From IMG/VR virus record IMGVR_UViG_3300021960_000017: a stretch of 64,000 nucleotides of DNA; one strand, 5' to 3'. This DNA comes from a virus. Taxonomy: Duplodnaviria > Caudoviricetes. Below, one piece after another: positions 25,263 through 57,953 of this stretch; positions within the stretch are counted from its first letter, which is position 1; the number at the start of each line of letters is the position of its first letter. The position numbers and the translations under genes were made by a program. The notes below the pieces were generated by a model. That model was not told the DNA's origin, did no database searches, and saw only the letters and a program-made list of their open reading frames with translations.

Positions 25263-25689
25263 ACTGCCTCTTAATCAGGTATTGGGTGCTCTTGATAAAA
25301 AGGATATGAAGTTCTGGGATCGTTGCACACCTGAACAGCAAAAGAAGATTGCTCCATTTCTACTAAACAGATATATGAGTATTGTGAAAGGTAGTGCAGA
25401 GTTGCATGCTTATTATCTCATGGCTACCAATCAGCGTGTGAATGTAAACTATTTTGCACTCAGTAAGCATCCTAAACTTGTATGGCAACTGTTATGTACC
25501 GTGAGCCCAGGCATGGGCAATCAGTTCCATCAGTGGATAGGCAACAAAAAGAAAAAGTCCAGTAATACGGACATACGCAAAAGACTCGCAGAGTTATATC
25601 CTAATTACAAAGAGGATGAACTAGACTTACTAGCCAGTATTACTACAGCATCTGAATTAAAACAACTGGCTGAGGCTAGTGGACAATGA
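25255..25689 (+). CDS. clamp-loader small subunit (T4 gp62-like)
   Basis: FWD..TPEQQKKIAPFLLNRYMS, HPKLVWQLL, YPNYKEDEL. Confidence 0.75.
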   Translation: MTELPLNQVLGALDKKDMKFWDRCTPEQQKKIAPFLLNRYMSIVKGSAELHAYYLMATNQRVNVNYFALSKHPKLVWQLLCTVSPGMGNQFHQWIGNKKKKSSNTDIRKRLAELYPNYKEDELDLLASITTASELKQLAEASGQ

Positions 25690-26483
25690 TAGACTTTAAC
25701 ACAGATAAAGTTGTAATTGCTTACTATCCTCCGGGCGCCGGCGGAAAGACTGTCTTAAACTGTCTAGGAATAAGCAAAAACTTTTGTATACAAGATATTG
25801 ATGCGCCGCTAGACAGTCTTAGCAAGTTTAATCTTATAAAAACACGAATAGATCAATATGAAATAAGCAATAATTGGTCAGATTTAGATTTAGGTTGTGT
25901 ACAACTTTATGGATTAGATGCATTTAAAGGGTTTAGTCCTGCTTTTTATCGTACTGCAATTTATAATGAAAAATTAGTAGAATTATTTCAAAGTGGTATA
26001 TATATGCCAATTGTTTGCCATACATATGCACAATTAAAAAATGTCCTTGGTATTTTTCCTAACAGCCAAATAATTGGGTTGCAGAATAGTTTTAATTTTA
26101 CAGCAAGCCGAAATTACGAAATTTTTAATATTAAAAAAGGATATAATGAAATAAAAGGTGACAATTGGCCCAGGGTAGTACCTAAAAAATTTTCCGATTT
26201 CCCAAAGGAAATTCAACAGGAAATACTAAATGACTTTCCCACATTTTATAATGCAATAACAAACAGAAAACATTATAACGATACATTTTTACAAGATGTT
26301 CATATGGATCATATATGGGATGTGCAATGGTTTTCAAATGTAGAAAAAACTTTAACTGAACTAAAATCCCTTTATAATGCTCTGAAGTTGGATGATTTTG
26401 ATACAGAAAAAATCCGATATTATTACACTAGATGGAAAACAAAAGTATATGATATATCCATGGATAACAATAAAGTCGTATAA
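25686..26483 (+). CDS. P-loop/sulfotransferase-like hypothetical protein
   Basis: N-terminal YYPPGAGGKTV loop; internal YNEIKGDNWP module. Confidence 0.55.
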   Translation: MIDFNTDKVVIAYYPPGAGGKTVLNCLGISKNFCIQDIDAPLDSLSKFNLIKTRIDQYEISNNWSDLDLGCVQLYGLDAFKGFSPAFYRTAIYNEKLVELFQSGIYMPIVCHTYAQLKNVLGIFPNSQIIGLQNSFNFTASRNYEIFNIKKGYNEIKGDNWPRVVPKKFSDFPKEIQQEILNDFPTFYNAITNRKHYNDTFLQDVHMDHIWDVQWFSNVEKTLTELKSLYNALKLDDFDTEKIRYYYTRWKTKVYDISMDNNKVV

Positions 26484-52560: not shown

Positions 52561-53733
52561 ATGGCAGTATTGGACACAGACAACAGAGACCACAAAAACA
52601 GAAAAAGTTTTTTAGACGGCAATGTGGGCGTACAACGCTATGACGATGTAAAGTATCGTGCGTTTGACAAACTTACTGACAAGCAACTTGGTTTCTTCTG
52701 GCGTCCTGAAGAGGTAGATATTTTGCGTGATGCAAAAGACTTTAAAGAACTTACTGATCACGAAAAGCATATCTTTACTAGTAACCTAAAGCGTCAAATC
52801 CTACTAGACAGTGTGCAAGGACGCTCACCTAACCTTGCGTTTCTTCCACTAGTAAGTTTACCAGAACTAGAAACATGGATTGAAACCTGGGCATTTAGTG
52901 AAACTATTCACAGTCGCAGTTACACACATATTATTCGTAATGTGTATGCTGATCCGAGCAAGGTGTTTGACGAGATGTTAGACATCCAAGAGATTGTAGA
53001 TTGTGCAGACGATATTACACGGCACTATGATGATTTAGTTCGTATGGCTGGCTGGTACAATTTACTGGGCGTTGGTAAGCATCTTGTTGTCAGCGGCAAA
53101 GAACACGATACTTCCAAAGTAAACGGTAACTTCAGCAACGTTGCAACAGAGATCAATGTTGATTTGTATGAACTAAAAAAGAAGTTATGGCTTACACTAA
53201 TGAGTGTAAACATTCTAGAAGGTGTTCGCTTTTATGTAAGTTTTGCTTGCTCGTGGGCATTTGCAGAACTTAAGAAGATGGAAGGCAACGCCAAGATTAT
53301 TAAGTTTATCGCTCGCGACGAAAATGTGCATTTGGGTAGTACACAACAATTATTAAAACTATTGCCCAAAGAAGATCAAGACTTTGCAAAGATTGCTGAT
53401 GAAACATTGGAAGAATGTGTACAAATGTTTGTAAGTGCAGTTGAGCAGGAAAAGCGTTGGGCAGAATACTTGTTTAAAGACGGCAGCATGATTGGCTTGA
53501 ATGCACAACTACTAAGTCAGTATATTGAATGGATTGCTAACAAGCGTATGATTGCCATTGGTATCAAGAGTCCATTTAATGTTCCACAGGCTAGCCCACT
53601 TCCCTGGACACAGAAGTGGATCAGTGGCGGCGAAGTACAAGTAGCACCACAGGAAACAGAAATTAGCAGTTATATTATTGGTGGAACTAAACAGGATGTT
53701 GAAGAGAACACCTTTAGTGGTCTTAGTTTATAA
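52561..53733 (+). CDS. nrdB: class Ia ribonucleotide reductase beta subunit
   Basis: FFWRPEE, LLDSVQGR, ETIHSRSY, EGVRFY, RDENVH, APQETEISSY. Confidence 0.97.
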   Translation: MAVLDTDNRDHKNRKSFLDGNVGVQRYDDVKYRAFDKLTDKQLGFFWRPEEVDILRDAKDFKELTDHEKHIFTSNLKRQILLDSVQGRSPNLAFLPLVSLPELETWIETWAFSETIHSRSYTHIIRNVYADPSKVFDEMLDIQEIVDCADDITRHYDDLVRMAGWYNLLGVGKHLVVSGKEHDTSKVNGNFSNVATEINVDLYELKKKLWLTLMSVNILEGVRFYVSFACSWAFAELKKMEGNAKIIKFIARDENVHLGSTQQLLKLLPKEDQDFAKIADETLEECVQMFVSAVEQEKRWAEYLFKDGSMIGLNAQLLSQYIEWIANKRMIAIGIKSPFNVPQASPLPWTQKWISGGEVQVAPQETEISSYIIGGTKQDVEENTFSGLSL

Positions 53734-53810
53734 TGAAGACCCTAGTGTTAGGCGGACTAATAGTAGTCTGGATGATGGCTCTATTAGTAATAATTCATTT
53801 CCATGCATGA
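53733..53810 (+). CDS. 25-aa hydrophobic peptide (not in ORF track)
   Basis: MKTLVLGGLIVVWMMALLVIIHFHA; TAATG coupling to nrdB. Confidence 0.45.
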   Translation: MKTLVLGGLIVVWMMALLVIIHFHA

Positions 53811-54255
53811 AATAGAAGACTGGATATTAAACTTTTTGAGTAAACCCAATAGTGCTTTTGCAGGGATGCCTCCTTGTCCTTATGCAAAACGAGCATGGTT
53901 AGATGATAAGGTTATAGTGCATAAAATTTATCCATGGAATATAGAAGACGCTCTGCGTTGGACCTTAACTTACTTTCCACCTGACAAAGATGTAGTTCTG
54001 TTTTGTATGGATCCAAAACTCATTTCTGCAGAGCATCTTGAAAAACTTGCAATAAGTACTGATGACTATATTATTTTAGACGACCATCCTGCTAATCCTG
54101 AAGTTGTAGATGGAGTCTTGCTTAATCAAGGAACATATGCTATACTATTTGTACAGCGTAGGAAAGAATTAGAAAAGGCACGTCAAGAACTTTCCCAAAC
54201 AAATTATTATAAAAATTTTACAGAAGAGTATAAAAACGACGTAGTAAATAGATGA
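53803..54255 (+). CDS. DUF1415-like protein
   Basis: WI..FL...PPCPYAK and DDHP resemble the CPFAK/FHP motifs of DUF1415. Confidence 0.55.
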   Translation: MHEIEDWILNFLSKPNSAFAGMPPCPYAKRAWLDDKVIVHKIYPWNIEDALRWTLTYFPPDKDVVLFCMDPKLISAEHLEKLAISTDDYIILDDHPANPEVVDGVLLNQGTYAILFVQRRKELEKARQELSQTNYYKNFTEEYKNDVVNR

Positions 54256-54686
54256 CATTATATGCATATATTGATTTAACAGAAACAAACTATACTCCAC
54301 AACTTGAATATGAAATACTACCAAAGGACACAGATCCTGTTCCATTGTTAGAAATATACAAACAGTATTGTAAGCATAAAGAGTTTGAGAGTGCGTGGCC
54401 TATGTTTGCAGAAGAATTTGCAGCACCTCATAATGACATAATTGCATATAGAGTTAAAGATAAGATTGTAGCGTGGAGTTTGATATACAAGATTGCAAAA
54501 GACACTGTATGGAATATGCAATTTGCTTGGGACTACAAACAACCCAAATTAAAACTAGGCTATAAAAGTATAAGAACAGAGTGTGCCATTTATAGGGAAC
54601 TTGGATATAAAACTATGATGATAGATGATGACGTTCCTTATAAAGCAGAGTTACAAGGCTTTAAAATTTTTGGACCTATAAAATGA
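54252..54686 (+). CDS. Arg/Leu-tRNA-protein transferase (ATE_C)-like GNAT
   Basis: AYRVKDKIVAWS...FAWDYKQPKLKLGYKSIRTECAIYRELGY resembles ATE FYDP..LSLG....EI..A...G. Confidence 0.5.
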   Translation: MTLYAYIDLTETNYTPQLEYEILPKDTDPVPLLEIYKQYCKHKEFESAWPMFAEEFAAPHNDIIAYRVKDKIVAWSLIYKIAKDTVWNMQFAWDYKQPKLKLGYKSIRTECAIYRELGYKTMMIDDDVPYKAELQGFKIFGPIK

Positions 54687-55003
54687 ACGTATATACAATA
54701 TACGCAGATCTTACAGAAGGTGCAAATGTAGACGACTTTTTGTCTAGCATCAAAGAGTTCTTTGGAACTCTGGACACACTTGTTGCCTATCGTATCACAC
54801 GAATGAAACTGGGATTTCGCAGCAAAGATATAGGCGAGTGGCGTATAGATATGGAATTCAAAACCATGCAAGACCTAGATGATGCTATGGAACGTGTTTT
54901 ACACAATAGGAAGACAGTGGACAGTCATATACATTTTACACAGTATATAGATGCTGACAGTCTAGATCATTTTTTATACAGGGACTTTCCAGATGAAGTA
55001 TAA
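54683..55003 (+). CDS. DUF6614-like protein
   Basis: YRITRMKLGF...EWRIDMEF...DLDDA. Confidence 0.55.
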   Translation: MNVYTIYADLTEGANVDDFLSSIKEFFGTLDTLVAYRITRMKLGFRSKDIGEWRIDMEFKTMQDLDDAMERVLHNRKTVDSHIHFTQYIDADSLDHFLYRDFPDEV

Positions 55004-56198
55004 CATCTGGAACAAATGGGACCCGCTTAAGGTTGTAATGTTAGGCGACAACTGGGGTCCTGAATTTTTCCAAGGTATTAAAGATGATAGGATTCGTAGT
55101 CCATTACAGCAAATAGCAGAGGAAACTCTAGAAGAACTAGCATATTTTGAAAGTGTACTTAAAGACTTTGGCTGTACTGTTCTTAGACCTGTAATAGACA
55201 GAAACGATCGTATCGAGAATTATGTAAGTGAAAACGGAAAAATAAACGGTGGTGTTCCGCGTACCGCATTACAACCAAGAGATAGTCAAATAGTAAGTGG
55301 AAATGTTTTATATAGTGAATTTACTGACAATCCAGGAATAGTACAAGGATTAAAACAATACGGCGAAGTTAACCCTTTTTTAGACCAGCAGGATATTCAA
55401 CTTATTCTTCATAATAATCCTATGGATCAAGATCAATTTGATCGACGTGCTGGCGCCGATTACCCTACATATGAATATTATTTAGAAAATAGAAAAGACA
55501 AAAATAAATTTTTAGATTATGTTTGGGAAGAACTTAATAGTTTTGTTGATTTAGAAGGGATGCCTACTAGTGCAAACTCTTTTTTAATTGGTAAAGACAT
55601 ATATGTAGATTTTAAGTGCCCGCTACCCTATAGAATCTTAGAGAAGATTTTTCCAGATATCCGCATAAATGTTTTATCGCATGGCCATACCCACGCTGAT
55701 GCTTGTTTTCATCCTATTAAACCAGGAGCAATTTTAAGCATTACAGATTTCCAAAACTATGAAGAAACATTTTTTAATTGGGATGTTTGTTATTTAAAGG
55801 GTGAGAGTTGGGATAAAGTTAAGGGGTTTATAAAGTTAAAGAAAGAAAATCTTGGAGCATGGTGGGTTCCTGGTGCTGAAGATAATCCACAGTTTTCTAA
55901 CTTTGTTAATAGTTGGCTAGATGAATGGGTTGGATATGTTGAAGAATCAGTATTTGATGTTAATGTATTAGTGTTAGATGAACATCATGTTTGCGTTAAC
56001 AACATGGAAAATCCGCAACTATTAGAGTTTTTAAAAAAACATAAAATGGAGCCTATTCACATTCCCTGGAAGCATAGATATTTCTGGGACGGTGGATTAC
56101 ACTGTATTACTTTAGATTTATACAGAGAAGGTGTACAGCAAGACTATTTCCCTGATCGTAAACAACCAATAGTCCAAAAGGAATTAGTAAATTGTTAA
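54993..56198 (+). CDS. amidinotransferase (glycine/inosamine-P type)
   Basis: WNKWDPLK, LQPRD, HAD, FDVNVLV, WDGGLHC (catalytic Cys). Confidence 0.88.
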   Translation: MKYNIWNKWDPLKVVMLGDNWGPEFFQGIKDDRIRSPLQQIAEETLEELAYFESVLKDFGCTVLRPVIDRNDRIENYVSENGKINGGVPRTALQPRDSQIVSGNVLYSEFTDNPGIVQGLKQYGEVNPFLDQQDIQLILHNNPMDQDQFDRRAGADYPTYEYYLENRKDKNKFLDYVWEELNSFVDLEGMPTSANSFLIGKDIYVDFKCPLPYRILEKIFPDIRINVLSHGHTHADACFHPIKPGAILSITDFQNYEETFFNWDVCYLKGESWDKVKGFIKLKKENLGAWWVPGAEDNPQFSNFVNSWLDEWVGYVEESVFDVNVLVLDEHHVCVNNMENPQLLEFLKKHKMEPIHIPWKHRYFWDGGLHCITLDLYREGVQQDYFPDRKQPIVQKELVNC

Positions 56199-57358
56199 GA
56201 GAAAAGTATAACATATGGAACAAATGGGATCCGCTTAAAGTTTGTATGTTAGGCAACAATTATGCTCCAGAATTTTTTAACGGCCTTCCAGACAAAGCAG
56301 GCGATCCACTAAAGCGCATATGTGAAGAGACTCTTGAAGATCTTGCAGGATTTAAAAAAATACTACAAGACTTTGGAGTAGAAGTAATACAGCCAGAAAT
56401 GGATCCTAACGAACGCTTTATTGACAATCCTAGCCGGTATCCAAGAGGACCACTACAACCAAGAGATCGTCAAATTGTACTTGCAAACAAATGTTATATA
56501 AGCGGCAATGATCATCCTTCAATTAAAACATGTCTGGAAAATTATGGTGAAGTAACAGATATAAGAGATGTAGATATTCACGTTCCTTATTATATGACTA
56601 GAGAAAGATATGACTTTATTCGTGGAGATGATTACCCAAGTTATGAAGACTTTTTAGAACATAGAAAAAATAAAGATTTTTTTAAAGATTTTGTATGGGA
56701 GGAACTTTTAGAAGTTAAAATAGACCTATCTCTTGACAGTGCTAGTAGTTTTCCTCTTGGTGATAATTTTACTATAGGCATAGGATTTGAGAAAAATATA
56801 TTTTTTTCTCACATTATACAAGAAATGAAATATTATTACACAGTTTTAGATCATTTTCATTGTAAATTAGTGCCTGTAATTGGTCATTCAGATTCAAATT
56901 TCCATCCTATTAAGCCAGGTGCAATATTAAGTTTGCATGATGTCCAAAATTATGAGAAAAATTTTCCTGGCTGGGATGTTTGCTATTTGCCAGAACAGGG
57001 TTGGAGTAAAGTTGAATCTTTTTTAAAACTTAAAAGATTAAACAAGGGCAAATGGTGGGTAGCAGGCGAAGAGGATAATGATGAGTTTACACATTTTGTA
57101 GAAACATGGTTGCAGGATTGGGTTGGATATGTAGAAGAAACAGTGTTTGACGTAAATGTTCTAATGCTAGACGAAAATCATTGTTGTGTTTCTAACCCCA
57201 ATAACGAGCAAGTAAACGCATTTTTTAAAAAACATAAAATCGAACCTGTGCATATTCCTTGGCGACATAGATGGTTTTGGGATGGCGGGTTACATTGTAT
57301 TACATTAGAGTTATACAGAGAAGGTAAACAACAAAATTATTTCAAAGGAGTTTGTTAG
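56192..57358 (+). CDS. amidinotransferase, tandem paralog
   Basis: WNKWDPLK, LQPRD, HSD, FDVNVLM, WDGGLHC. Confidence 0.88.
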   Translation: MLREKYNIWNKWDPLKVCMLGNNYAPEFFNGLPDKAGDPLKRICEETLEDLAGFKKILQDFGVEVIQPEMDPNERFIDNPSRYPRGPLQPRDRQIVLANKCYISGNDHPSIKTCLENYGEVTDIRDVDIHVPYYMTRERYDFIRGDDYPSYEDFLEHRKNKDFFKDFVWEELLEVKIDLSLDSASSFPLGDNFTIGIGFEKNIFFSHIIQEMKYYYTVLDHFHCKLVPVIGHSDSNFHPIKPGAILSLHDVQNYEKNFPGWDVCYLPEQGWSKVESFLKLKRLNKGKWWVAGEEDNDEFTHFVETWLQDWVGYVEETVFDVNVLMLDENHCCVSNPNNEQVNAFFKKHKIEPVHIPWRHRWFWDGGLHCITLELYREGKQQNYFKGVC

Positions 57359-57631
57359 TTGTTAACACTATACACAAAAAATTTATGCCCTTATTGCGAT
57401 ATGGCTAAAACATATCTACTTGCTTATGAAATTCCCTTTACAGAAGTAAACATTGAAGAAGATACTGAAGCACGAGAGTTTGTATTAAGCAAAGGCCATC
57501 GCACAGTGCCACAGATATACCGAGACGGAGAATTATTTGTTGAGGGCGGCGCTGAAGGCTTGATTAAAGTAGGTCATGAAACTATCAAAGAGCGTTTAGG
57601 TGATTTAAATCTAGGCGGCCTAAGTCTCTGA
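57359..57631 (+). CDS. glutaredoxin (NrdH/Grx-like)
   Basis: CPYC, RTVPQI, GG; TTG start; near nrdAB. Confidence 0.9.
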   Translation: MLTLYTKNLCPYCDMAKTYLLAYEIPFTEVNIEEDTEAREFVLSKGHRTVPQIYRDGELFVEGGAEGLIKVGHETIKERLGDLNLGGLSL

Positions 57632-57668: not shown

Positions 57669-57953
57669 ATGGCAAGACCTGTAGTAAGAATCGGTGACAG
57701 AAATAGTGCTGGCGGCGTAGCAGTTAGTCCAGTGCGTAATGTGCATGCTAATTTTAGACCTTTTGCAAGGTTTATGAGTAGTGTAACACCTCACCCCCCA
57801 TGTCCTAGAGTTCCAATCCACTGTGGCGCAAAAGCAGCATTGCCAGGCAGTAGAACAGTTCGTGCTGGTGGCAGACCTGTTGTTAGACGTGGAGATGTAG
57901 ACACTTGTGGACACCCTAGAGCATCAGGTTCTAGAAACGTCTTGTGTGGATAA
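57669..57953 (+). CDS. PAAR-repeat spike-tip protein (T4 gp5.4-like)
   Basis: VRIGD, PHPPC, GSRTVRAGGRPVVRRGD..TCGH, GSRNV; ATG 5 nt after TAAATA. Confidence 0.9.
   Translation: MARPVVRIGDRNSAGGVAVSPVRNVHANFRPFARFMSSVTPHPPCPRVPIHCGAKAALPGSRTVRAGGRPVVRRGDVDTCGHPRASGSRNVLCG

Follow-up and report, generated by a model that had tools for sequence, protein, structure and literature searches.

We analysed a 64,000-nucleotide stretch of DNA from the genome of an uncultured marine T4-like tailed phage (Caudoviricetes; IMG/VR virus record IMGVR_UViG_3300021960_000017), hereafter the window, and found between its ribonucleotide reductase gene nrdB and its glutaredoxin gene (grx) a cassette of five same-strand genes. 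The conserved unit of this cassette is a trio, p150-p144-p106, and the amidinotransferase genes that follow it (AT1 and AT2) represent a facultative fourth gene. Tentatively, we read this phage-specific, translationally coupled operon as a short biosynthetic or tailoring pathway acting on an arginine-derived (guanidino) substrate. The five genes are:

53803-54255, plus strand: p150, 150 residues, putative member of the thiolate-heme sandwich superfamily (alignment, DUF6875 matches in relatives, predicted fold)
54252-54686, plus strand: p144, 144 residues, predicted single-domain GNAT of the ATE_C family (ATE_C score, predicted fold)
54683-55003, plus strand: p106, 106 residues, DUF6614 protein (Pfam match)
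54993-56198, plus strand: AT1, 401 residues, predicted member of the amidinotransferase family (motifs, likeness to AT2)
56192-57358, plus strand: AT2, 388 residues, predicted member of the amidinotransferase family (phmmer matches)

Firstly, we assessed how widely the trio occurs. Marine, estuarine and other aquatic samples yielded at least 559 viral contigs that encode p144, and 80 phage loci were kept as a synteny set seeded on this gene. p150, p144 and p106 stand together in 68 of these 80 loci, usually in that order and with 4-nucleotide overlaps. Since the five genes are conserved across more than 100 phage loci, they are real and not chance open reading frames (ORFs). A sequence-only reading of the window had proposed that six coupled ORFs form an arginine-chemistry module between nrdB and grx. 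The ORFs are indeed there, at 53733-57358, on one strand and with overlapping successive stops and starts, and the gene set does recur in other genomes, with an amidinotransferase gene in or beside the trio in some of them; the six-gene module is reduced to five conserved genes around the trio, as the first ORF, which encodes 25 hydrophobic residues, is not conserved. Megablast of the region against GenBank phages gave no match, and neither p144 nor p106 was detected by tblastn in 50,697 GenBank phage records. In 185,579 cellular species genomes, p144 has a single match, on a 27.8-kb contig of a metagenome-assembled genome labelled 'Legionellales bacterium' (PBLX01000063.1, our locus L102). 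This contig carries p150, p144, a gene of about 228 residues described below, p106 and an amidinotransferase gene in the phage order; it probably derives from a phage and was binned into a bacterial genome. A literature search for phage ATE_C-like or YqcI/YcgG-like genes found no paper. Known superfamilies account for all the components; what has not been described is their arrangement, a phage-only trio joined by plug-in amidinotransferases.

Secondly, we assigned p144. The copy in the window scores 20.1 bits against ATE_C (PF04377), below the 25-bit cut-off, and 24 of 36 relatives match this family (best 2e-9). An exhaustive profile search retrieved 179 representatives in all, including a second tier of proteins of 225-268 residues, nine out of ten of which exceeded the ATE_C cut-off when tested. 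The ATE_C signature (F-x-W-D, L-G, E, Y-K, G) is present in p144. No ATE_N domain was matched in p144 or in ten longer relatives, and one GNAT domain fills all 144 residues. The AlphaFold2 (AF2) model (mean predicted local distance difference test, pLDDT, of 94) has a GNAT fold and matches GNAT structures with a Foldseek E-value of about 1e-5. Its top folds are L-PGS/MprF, VipF (Z 14.1) and FemX, at Z 14.0-14.3, followed by MAB_4324 (Z 13.2), Sbb17 (Z 12.4) and human ATE1 (Z 10.8). Most of the best matches are catalytic second domains of aminoacyl-tRNA-dependent transferases, with the acetyl-CoA GNATs VipF and MAB_4324 interspersed. Sbb17/Sba18, FemX and the MprF C-domain, which rank near the top of the structural matches (Z 12-14) through their catalytic second GNAT domain, differ from p144 in being double-GNAT proteins of about 290-400 residues, and share no significant sequence similarity with it. 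ATE1 and Bpt have the ATE_C signature and the GNAT fold in common with p144, whereas p144 is a single 144-residue domain that lacks both ATE_N and a Cys-rich N-terminus, in a family restricted to phages. The GNAT fold of p144 is thus predicted with confidence, and from the profile matches we assign the protein to the ATE_C family, as a one-domain member that resembles aminoacyl-tRNA transferases and is devoid of ATE_N.

Thirdly, we examined p150. The copy in the window has no Pfam match, DUF6875 and DUF1415 included. Among its relatives, 11 out of 28 match DUF6875 (PF21780) over their N-terminal 65 residues (best 9e-5, 23.0 bits against a gathering threshold of 24.5; 21.8 bits at best in a separate search), and a single orthologue matches DUF1415 (PF07209), at 16.4 bits against a cut-off of 26. 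In the alignment of the family (A2), Cys25-Pro26 is invariant, P24 is present in at least 90% of the sequences and the Gly is a consensus residue only. The resulting motif, G-x-P-P-C-P, departs from the R-x-G-x-V-C-P of the DUF6875 proteins: the Arg is absent and the spacing is off by one. The AF2 model (pLDDT 94) resembles AFDB clusters named DUF6875 and DUF1415 with template modelling (TM) scores of 0.5-0.62 (0.49-0.59 for DUF1415). Against the PDB, two independent structure searches ranked AglA at the top, Foldseek with an E-value of 0.02 and a TM score of 0.49, and VIA-align with a Z-score of 6.3 (below 8; root-mean-square deviation 3.8 over 137 of 150 residues), the next row being at Z 4.3; the p150 profile gave nothing meaningful against PDB sequences. 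AglA is thus the best and only clear solved match of p150.

AglA and AlpD belong to the YqcI/YcgG guanidine N-hydroxylases known from argolaphos, D-cycloserine and guanitoxin. The N-terminal Cys of p150 falls in the region of the AglA heme ligand Cys44, a correspondence seen at the level of the region. p150 differs from AglA in being about 90 residues shorter, in lacking loop L2, to which the AglA substrate pocket owes its shape, and in having no match to PF08892 (YqcI/YcgG); five phage records with the trio gave none at E-values up to 1, under conditions in which control genomes matched. The likeness to DUF6875, which has been renamed cytochrome P422, a family of Cys-ligated heme enzymes (bioRxiv 10.64898/2025.12.11.692455), and to DUF1415 consists of weak profile matches over the N-terminal 50-70 residues, Cys-Pro included, together with the fold; all these matches are under the Pfam cut-offs. 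P422 enzymes act on tryptophan, and their Trp-binding motifs SBR1-3 were not identified in p150. As modelled, p150 would define a new small family of the thiolate-heme sandwich superfamily (DUF6875/cytochrome P422, DUF1415, YqcI/YcgG) and is a putative heme oxygenase. p150-like genes are also found alone, unaccompanied by p144 or p106, in the cultured cyanomyophages S-RIM32 (L103:3884-4435), S-RIM44, Syn1, S-PM2 and S-H9-2, and in podophages of SAR116 (HMO-2011; L104:3986-4513) and of roseobacters.

We then compared the two amidinotransferases with enzymes of solved structure. Neither AT1 nor AT2 has a Pfam match at E-values up to 1. By phmmer, the C-terminal 70 residues of AT2 match HsvA (1.6e-4), SxtG and AGAT, and a profile of 29 sequences (A3) matches AGAT (3.1e-16), SxtG (6.3e-14), HsvA (3.2e-11) and StrB1 (1.1e-8) in the PDB, over two stretches, profile positions 43-240 and 313-376. 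The same search returned no other pentein enzyme, deiminases and DDAH included. C369, H368, H232, D234 and R91 are invariant in A3, and D92 is shared by at least 90% of the sequences; these motifs align to the F-H-C (catalytic Cys), M-H-I-D and P-R-D (substrate-binding Asp) of AGAT. The Cys in G-x-H-C, the H-x-D and the Asp of PRD are conserved in the phage proteins, both AT1 and AT2 keeping PRD, H-x-D (THAD and GHSD, respectively) and GGLHC. The phage proteins differ from AGAT, SxtG, HsvA and StrB1 in their very low identity outside the motifs, in an insert of about 35 residues, in being multi-copy and in being phage-encoded. Judged by sequence, AT1 and AT2 are genuine members of the AGAT/StrB1-type amidinotransferase family (pentein superfamily), of which we collected 1945 metagenomic homologues. 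The two proteins are 52% identical. AT2 lies inside the main marine-phage clade (support 99/99), and AT1 lies outside it, in a poorly resolved grade with the type found in L016-L020; as a divergent subtype, AT1 has an insert and also a tail at its C-terminus. The two appear to be distinct subtypes and are not recent duplicates. The insert of about 35 residues is conserved in both (Y..I.G.D[YW]PSYE ... F.DFVWEEL; 55436-55534 and 56609-56708). It resembles by eye a stretch (Y.EIKGDNWP ... FSDFPKEIQQEIL) of the otherwise unrelated 265-residue ORF at 25686-26483; we discarded the idea of a shared 35-residue module, pairwise BLAST being not significant (E 0.26-0.36).

Distant relatives of these amidinotransferases occur in the cyanophage S-SCSM2R and in Campylobacter Firehammervirus phages. 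In Synechococcus phage S-SCSM2R the homologue is a short protein, ORF266, encoded beside 2-oxoglutarate-Fe(II) oxygenase genes and KdsA/KdsB (L002:5512-6405), and is reported to be in the virion proteome (PMC12801897). In Campylobacter phage CPt10 (Firehammervirus), it lies amid a run of five radical SAM genes (L003:6020-11575). The creatine discussed in a paper on auxiliary metabolic genes (PMC11360552) concerns GAMT, not the present family.

The third member of the trio, p106, matches DUF6614 (PF20319) at 55.5 bits (cut-off 25; 7.2e-15), its residues 1-105 aligning to positions 1-107 of the 116 of the profile. Protein-atlas features point to DUF6614, DUF6974, ABM and DUF4286, and R37, R40, K42, R46, E52, H82, H96, R100, D101 and D104 are invariant in the family (alignment A4). 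p106 is probably a dimer with an ABM-like alpha/beta-barrel, in which Arg, His and Asp residues are invariant. Druad1, a 44-residue anti-Druantia protein termed 'DUF6614' (bioRxiv 10.1101/2024.04.14.589459), was considered as a guide to p106 and set aside, being too short and too weakly assigned. Taken together, the family labels of the sequence-only reading fared well: an ATE_C-like GNAT of 144 residues is borne out by the matches of the relatives and by the fold, the DUF6614 label exceeds the cut-off, and the HxD and GGLHC motifs of both amidinotransferases are present. The label 'DUF1415-like' for p150 is valid at the superfamily level only, through the fold and the one sub-threshold orthologue; the copy in the window gives it no Pfam match.

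How these activities could be combined is the substance of the reading that we favour. AT1 and AT2 would amidinate one or two amine acceptors by the Cys-His-Asp pentein mechanism, taking the amidino group from L-arginine and passing through a Cys-amidino intermediate. With an aminoacyl-tRNA as its donor, p144 would make an amide bond to an amine of the amidinated scaffold, or would attach Arg itself. p150, as a minimal thiolate-heme enzyme of AglA/P422 fold, would oxidise the product, most plausibly by guanidine N-hydroxylation, and p106, whose barrel is rich in invariant Arg and His, may be an accessory catalyst or a binding subunit. The core of the pathway would be p150-p144-p106, with the amidinotransferases as optional front-end modules. 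An arginine/guanidino pathway is the best-supported reading because amidinotransferases make guanidines, AglA oxidises one and the argolaphos cluster pairs a hydroxylase with GNATs. AglA, a YqcI/YcgG thiolate-heme enzyme, uses a Cys-ligated heme to N-hydroxylate the guanidine of an aminomethylphosphonate-linked arginine (PMC12866846), and the reading is strengthened because the only solved relative of p150 acts in this way on an arginine derivative. In the argolaphos (alp) cluster, the YqcI/YcgG hydroxylase AlpD is encoded next to an ATP-grasp ligase and to two GNATs, AlpF and AlpO, for which a role as aminoacyl-tRNA-dependent ligases has been proposed (PMC8976061); the phage cassette resembles this cluster in its setting of arginine chemistry and in the neighbouring GNAT ligase of the aminoacyl-tRNA type. 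Further support comes from the top matches of p144, which include tRNA-dependent transferases acting on small molecules or lipids (MprF, FemX, Sbb17), from the Cys-Pro region of p150, which matches the DUF6875/P422 profile whose Cys ligates heme, and from additional small-molecule enzyme genes in the operon of relatives, namely a radical SAM gene and an ATP-grasp-like lead (both below). The pathway to an Arg- or guanidino-modified product that the sequence-only reading had suggested therefore survives as the best reading, aided by the AglA-like fold of p150; its amidinotransferases turn out to be facultative and not core. In its most specific form, the proposal is doubtful: aquatic T4-like phages would carry a conserved operon in the style of natural-product clusters, whose minimal oxygenase of the thiolate-heme type, one-domain tRNA-dependent GNAT ligase, barrel protein and plug-in amidinotransferases make an N-oxygenated guanidino pseudo-peptide during infection.

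The points that weigh against such a pathway concern p150, the amidinotransferase link and p144. At 150 residues, p150 is far smaller than AglA (243) and P422 (180-300), is devoid of their substrate loops and stays below every Pfam cut-off; no redox partner was identified for it in the operon, glutaredoxin being adjacent in this lineage only. As for the link, an amidinotransferase gene lies within 8 kb at 20 of the 80 p144-seeded loci and at none of the other 60, and amidinotransferase genes stand alone, away from any trio, in L006, L015-L017 and L021. Hence the link is not obligate, since most trio loci have no such gene nearby and the gene also occurs alone. Each of the five large trio contigs searched holds 2-5 matches to the amidinotransferase family, so that a distance within 8 kb is close to chance. 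The trio and the amidinotransferases are both cargo of hyperplastic regions, in which adjacency could arise without shared function.

These observations bring in an alternative, which we consider unlikely, that two unrelated cargo functions merely sit side by side. The amidinotransferases would then act by themselves on polyamines or other amines, giving agmatine/arcaine-type products that serve DNA packaging or nitrogen economy; the trio would do something else, and their adjacency would reflect shared insertion hot spots in T4-like genomes. The occurrence of amidinotransferase genes without the trio in several contexts, the 60 trio loci with none nearby and the several copies per trio phage all fit this alternative, as does the presence among the closest solved relatives of HsvA, a polyamine amidinotransferase. 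The way in which the genes are joined speaks against it. At least six arrangements, in different genome contexts, place the amidinotransferase gene within or directly against the trio: it can follow p106, separate p144 from p106 or p150 from p144, take the place of p106, run divergently, or flank the trio. In several lineages (L035, L038, L039, L053, L059 and L084), it lies between trio genes with 4-nucleotide overlaps, and at least four unrelated genome contexts have it immediately next to the trio. This in-operon splicing at different junctions is the sole informative signal of the link, and, again to the detriment of the pathway, the spliced loci are not phylogenetically independent.

The family to which p144 belongs raises the third difficulty. 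To our knowledge, the characterised ATE_C proteins (ATE1 and Bpt) all act on protein N-termini and not on small molecules. The main rival to the pathway, in our view a rather unlikely one, is an N-degron writer, an alternative that the sequence-only reading had also named: p144, as a minimal Bpt/ATE-like enzyme, would add a destabilising residue to protein N-termini, a phage ClpS would read it and host ClpAP would degrade the protein, so that proteolysis is redirected during infection. p150, as a protein dependent on heme and O2, and p106 would prepare or sense N-termini, and the amidinotransferases would either have no part in this or act on amines of N-termini or side chains. ATE1 and Bpt are aminoacyl-tRNA-protein transferases, and the sequence family of p144 is theirs. 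ClpS genes, which are rare in GenBank phages (15 of 50,697 records), occur in five out of ten large trio-bearing contigs, including both of those that are at least 90% complete (L113:229-546 on G001, G002:C1:260704-260940, G003:C1:212442-212675, G006:C1:294667-294903 and G010:C1:18900-19133). In addition, a 260-residue ATE_C relative is encoded 3.5 kb from ClpS (L105:2178-2465) on a phage-like contig bearing UvsW. Against this rival, p144 has no ATE_N domain, and ClpS never adjoins the trio, being 12-126 kb distant; its enrichment is not established, the trio-free control contigs being only 10-23% complete. An N-degron writer also leaves no role for an amidinotransferase spliced into the operon, for p106 or for a heme oxygenase with the fold of a guanidine hydroxylase.

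We analysed the genomic context of the cassette in relatives of the window. In loci seeded on AT2, seven marine T4-like contigs have the order nrdB-p150-p144-p106-AT-grx-PAAR, with the 228-residue gene between p144 and p106 in some of them; the module also occurs in other places, moved or rearranged. The identity of nrdB is 69-77% across the syntenic marine loci of T4-like type and 41% in the rearranged locus L010. In most p144-seeded phages, the trio lies between a T4 baseplate gene and segE/gp47/gp46. Insertion between nrdB and grx, as first proposed, thus holds for the window and is particular to one marine lineage. What follows the trio also varies: it may be a phosphoribosyltransferase (PRTase) with a PNP-like gene, a sulfotransferase-like gene or a radical SAM gene of the B12-binding type. 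In a freshwater-type T4-like lineage (L061, L072, L079, L082, L088, L101), a same-strand PRTase gene and a short PNP_UDP_1-like gene stand directly 3' of p106. In 12-15 other loci, a B12-binding radical SAM gene and a 172-residue gene are found with the trio and often lie on the opposite strand, and one syntenic relative has a radical SAM gene between nrdB and p150 (L009:4904-6100). The conserved gene of about 228 residues is found between p144 and p106 in five marine loci (L008:2107-2793, L004:515-1228, L009:6951-7691, L013:7020-7703, L102:8534-9217). It has no Pfam match and no PDB profile match; its protein-atlas features point to ATP-grasp/PurP-type ligases (0.91), which we regard as a lead only.

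Some of these neighbours would suit a chemistry directed at nucleic acids, in which DNA bases, nucleotides or tRNA are modified, for example by a guanidino or aminoacyl hypermodification that shields phage DNA. The nrdB/grx position in the window, among nucleotide-metabolism genes, the PRTase and PNP_UDP_1-like genes behind the trio in other phages, and the Firehammervirus amidinotransferase homologue amid radical SAM genes all point that way. We nevertheless hold this explanation to be very improbable: in the loci read, no genes of known base hypermodification (hydroxymethylase, 5-hydroxymethyldeoxyuridine (5-hmdU) kinase, aGPT-Pplase, DpdA/Que) were seen beside the cassette, the nrd context is limited to one lineage, and the neighbours vary and are often on the other strand.

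In the window, the cassette is flanked upstream by nrdA and nrdB and downstream by the glutaredoxin gene and a PAAR gene:

52561-53733, plus strand: nrdB, ribonucleotide reductase small subunit, upstream neighbour (Pfam Ribonuc_red_sm, 8.8e-47)
53733-53810, plus strand: 25-residue hydrophobic ORF, from the nrdB stop to the p150 start (ORF call only)
57359-57631, plus strand: grx, glutaredoxin, downstream neighbour (Pfam Glutaredoxin, 4.9e-17; syntenic in relatives)
57669-57953: PAAR-motif protein, gp5.4-like, after grx

A gene for a 633-residue protein follows the PAAR gene; both are syntenic in relatives, and the baseplate block begins there. The 25-residue ORF is not conserved and lies outside the module: a relaxed tblastn search for a counterpart found nothing credible, the gap between nrdB and p150 is 1-5 nucleotides in seven syntenic relatives, and the space is too small for this ORF in L005, L007, L008, L011, L012 and L013. 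Sigma-70 promoter-like and terminator-like sites are no more frequent than by chance in 49.5-60.5 kb, and the T4-type late promoter TATAAATA is absent within the region. Because no promoter- or terminator-like signal above chance is seen inside the string, the cassette looks co-transcribed with the nucleotide-metabolism genes. No tRNA gene was found in the window. The DNA of the region is nearly complete in 10 public runs from at least six studies (estuary, marine and aquatic metagenomes), and there was no RNA run among the listed public runs containing it.

With p144 in at least 559 contigs and in no cultured phage record searched, the trio represents a widespread viral function, so far unstudied. 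The five cassette proteins are small and soluble-looking. If p144 were an N-degron writer working with a phage ClpS, phages would rewrite the protein-degradation code of their host. If the operon makes an N-oxygenated guanidino pseudo-peptide, its product would represent a new class of virus-made metabolite, and p150 would be the smallest known non-P450 thiolate-heme enzyme. More generally, if the favoured reading of a pathway to a metabolite is true, the cassette would provide minimal thiolate-heme N-H/C-H hydroxylases and tRNA-dependent amide ligases, types of enzyme of current biocatalytic interest, and would be a rare multi-step, secondary-metabolite-like pathway native to phages.

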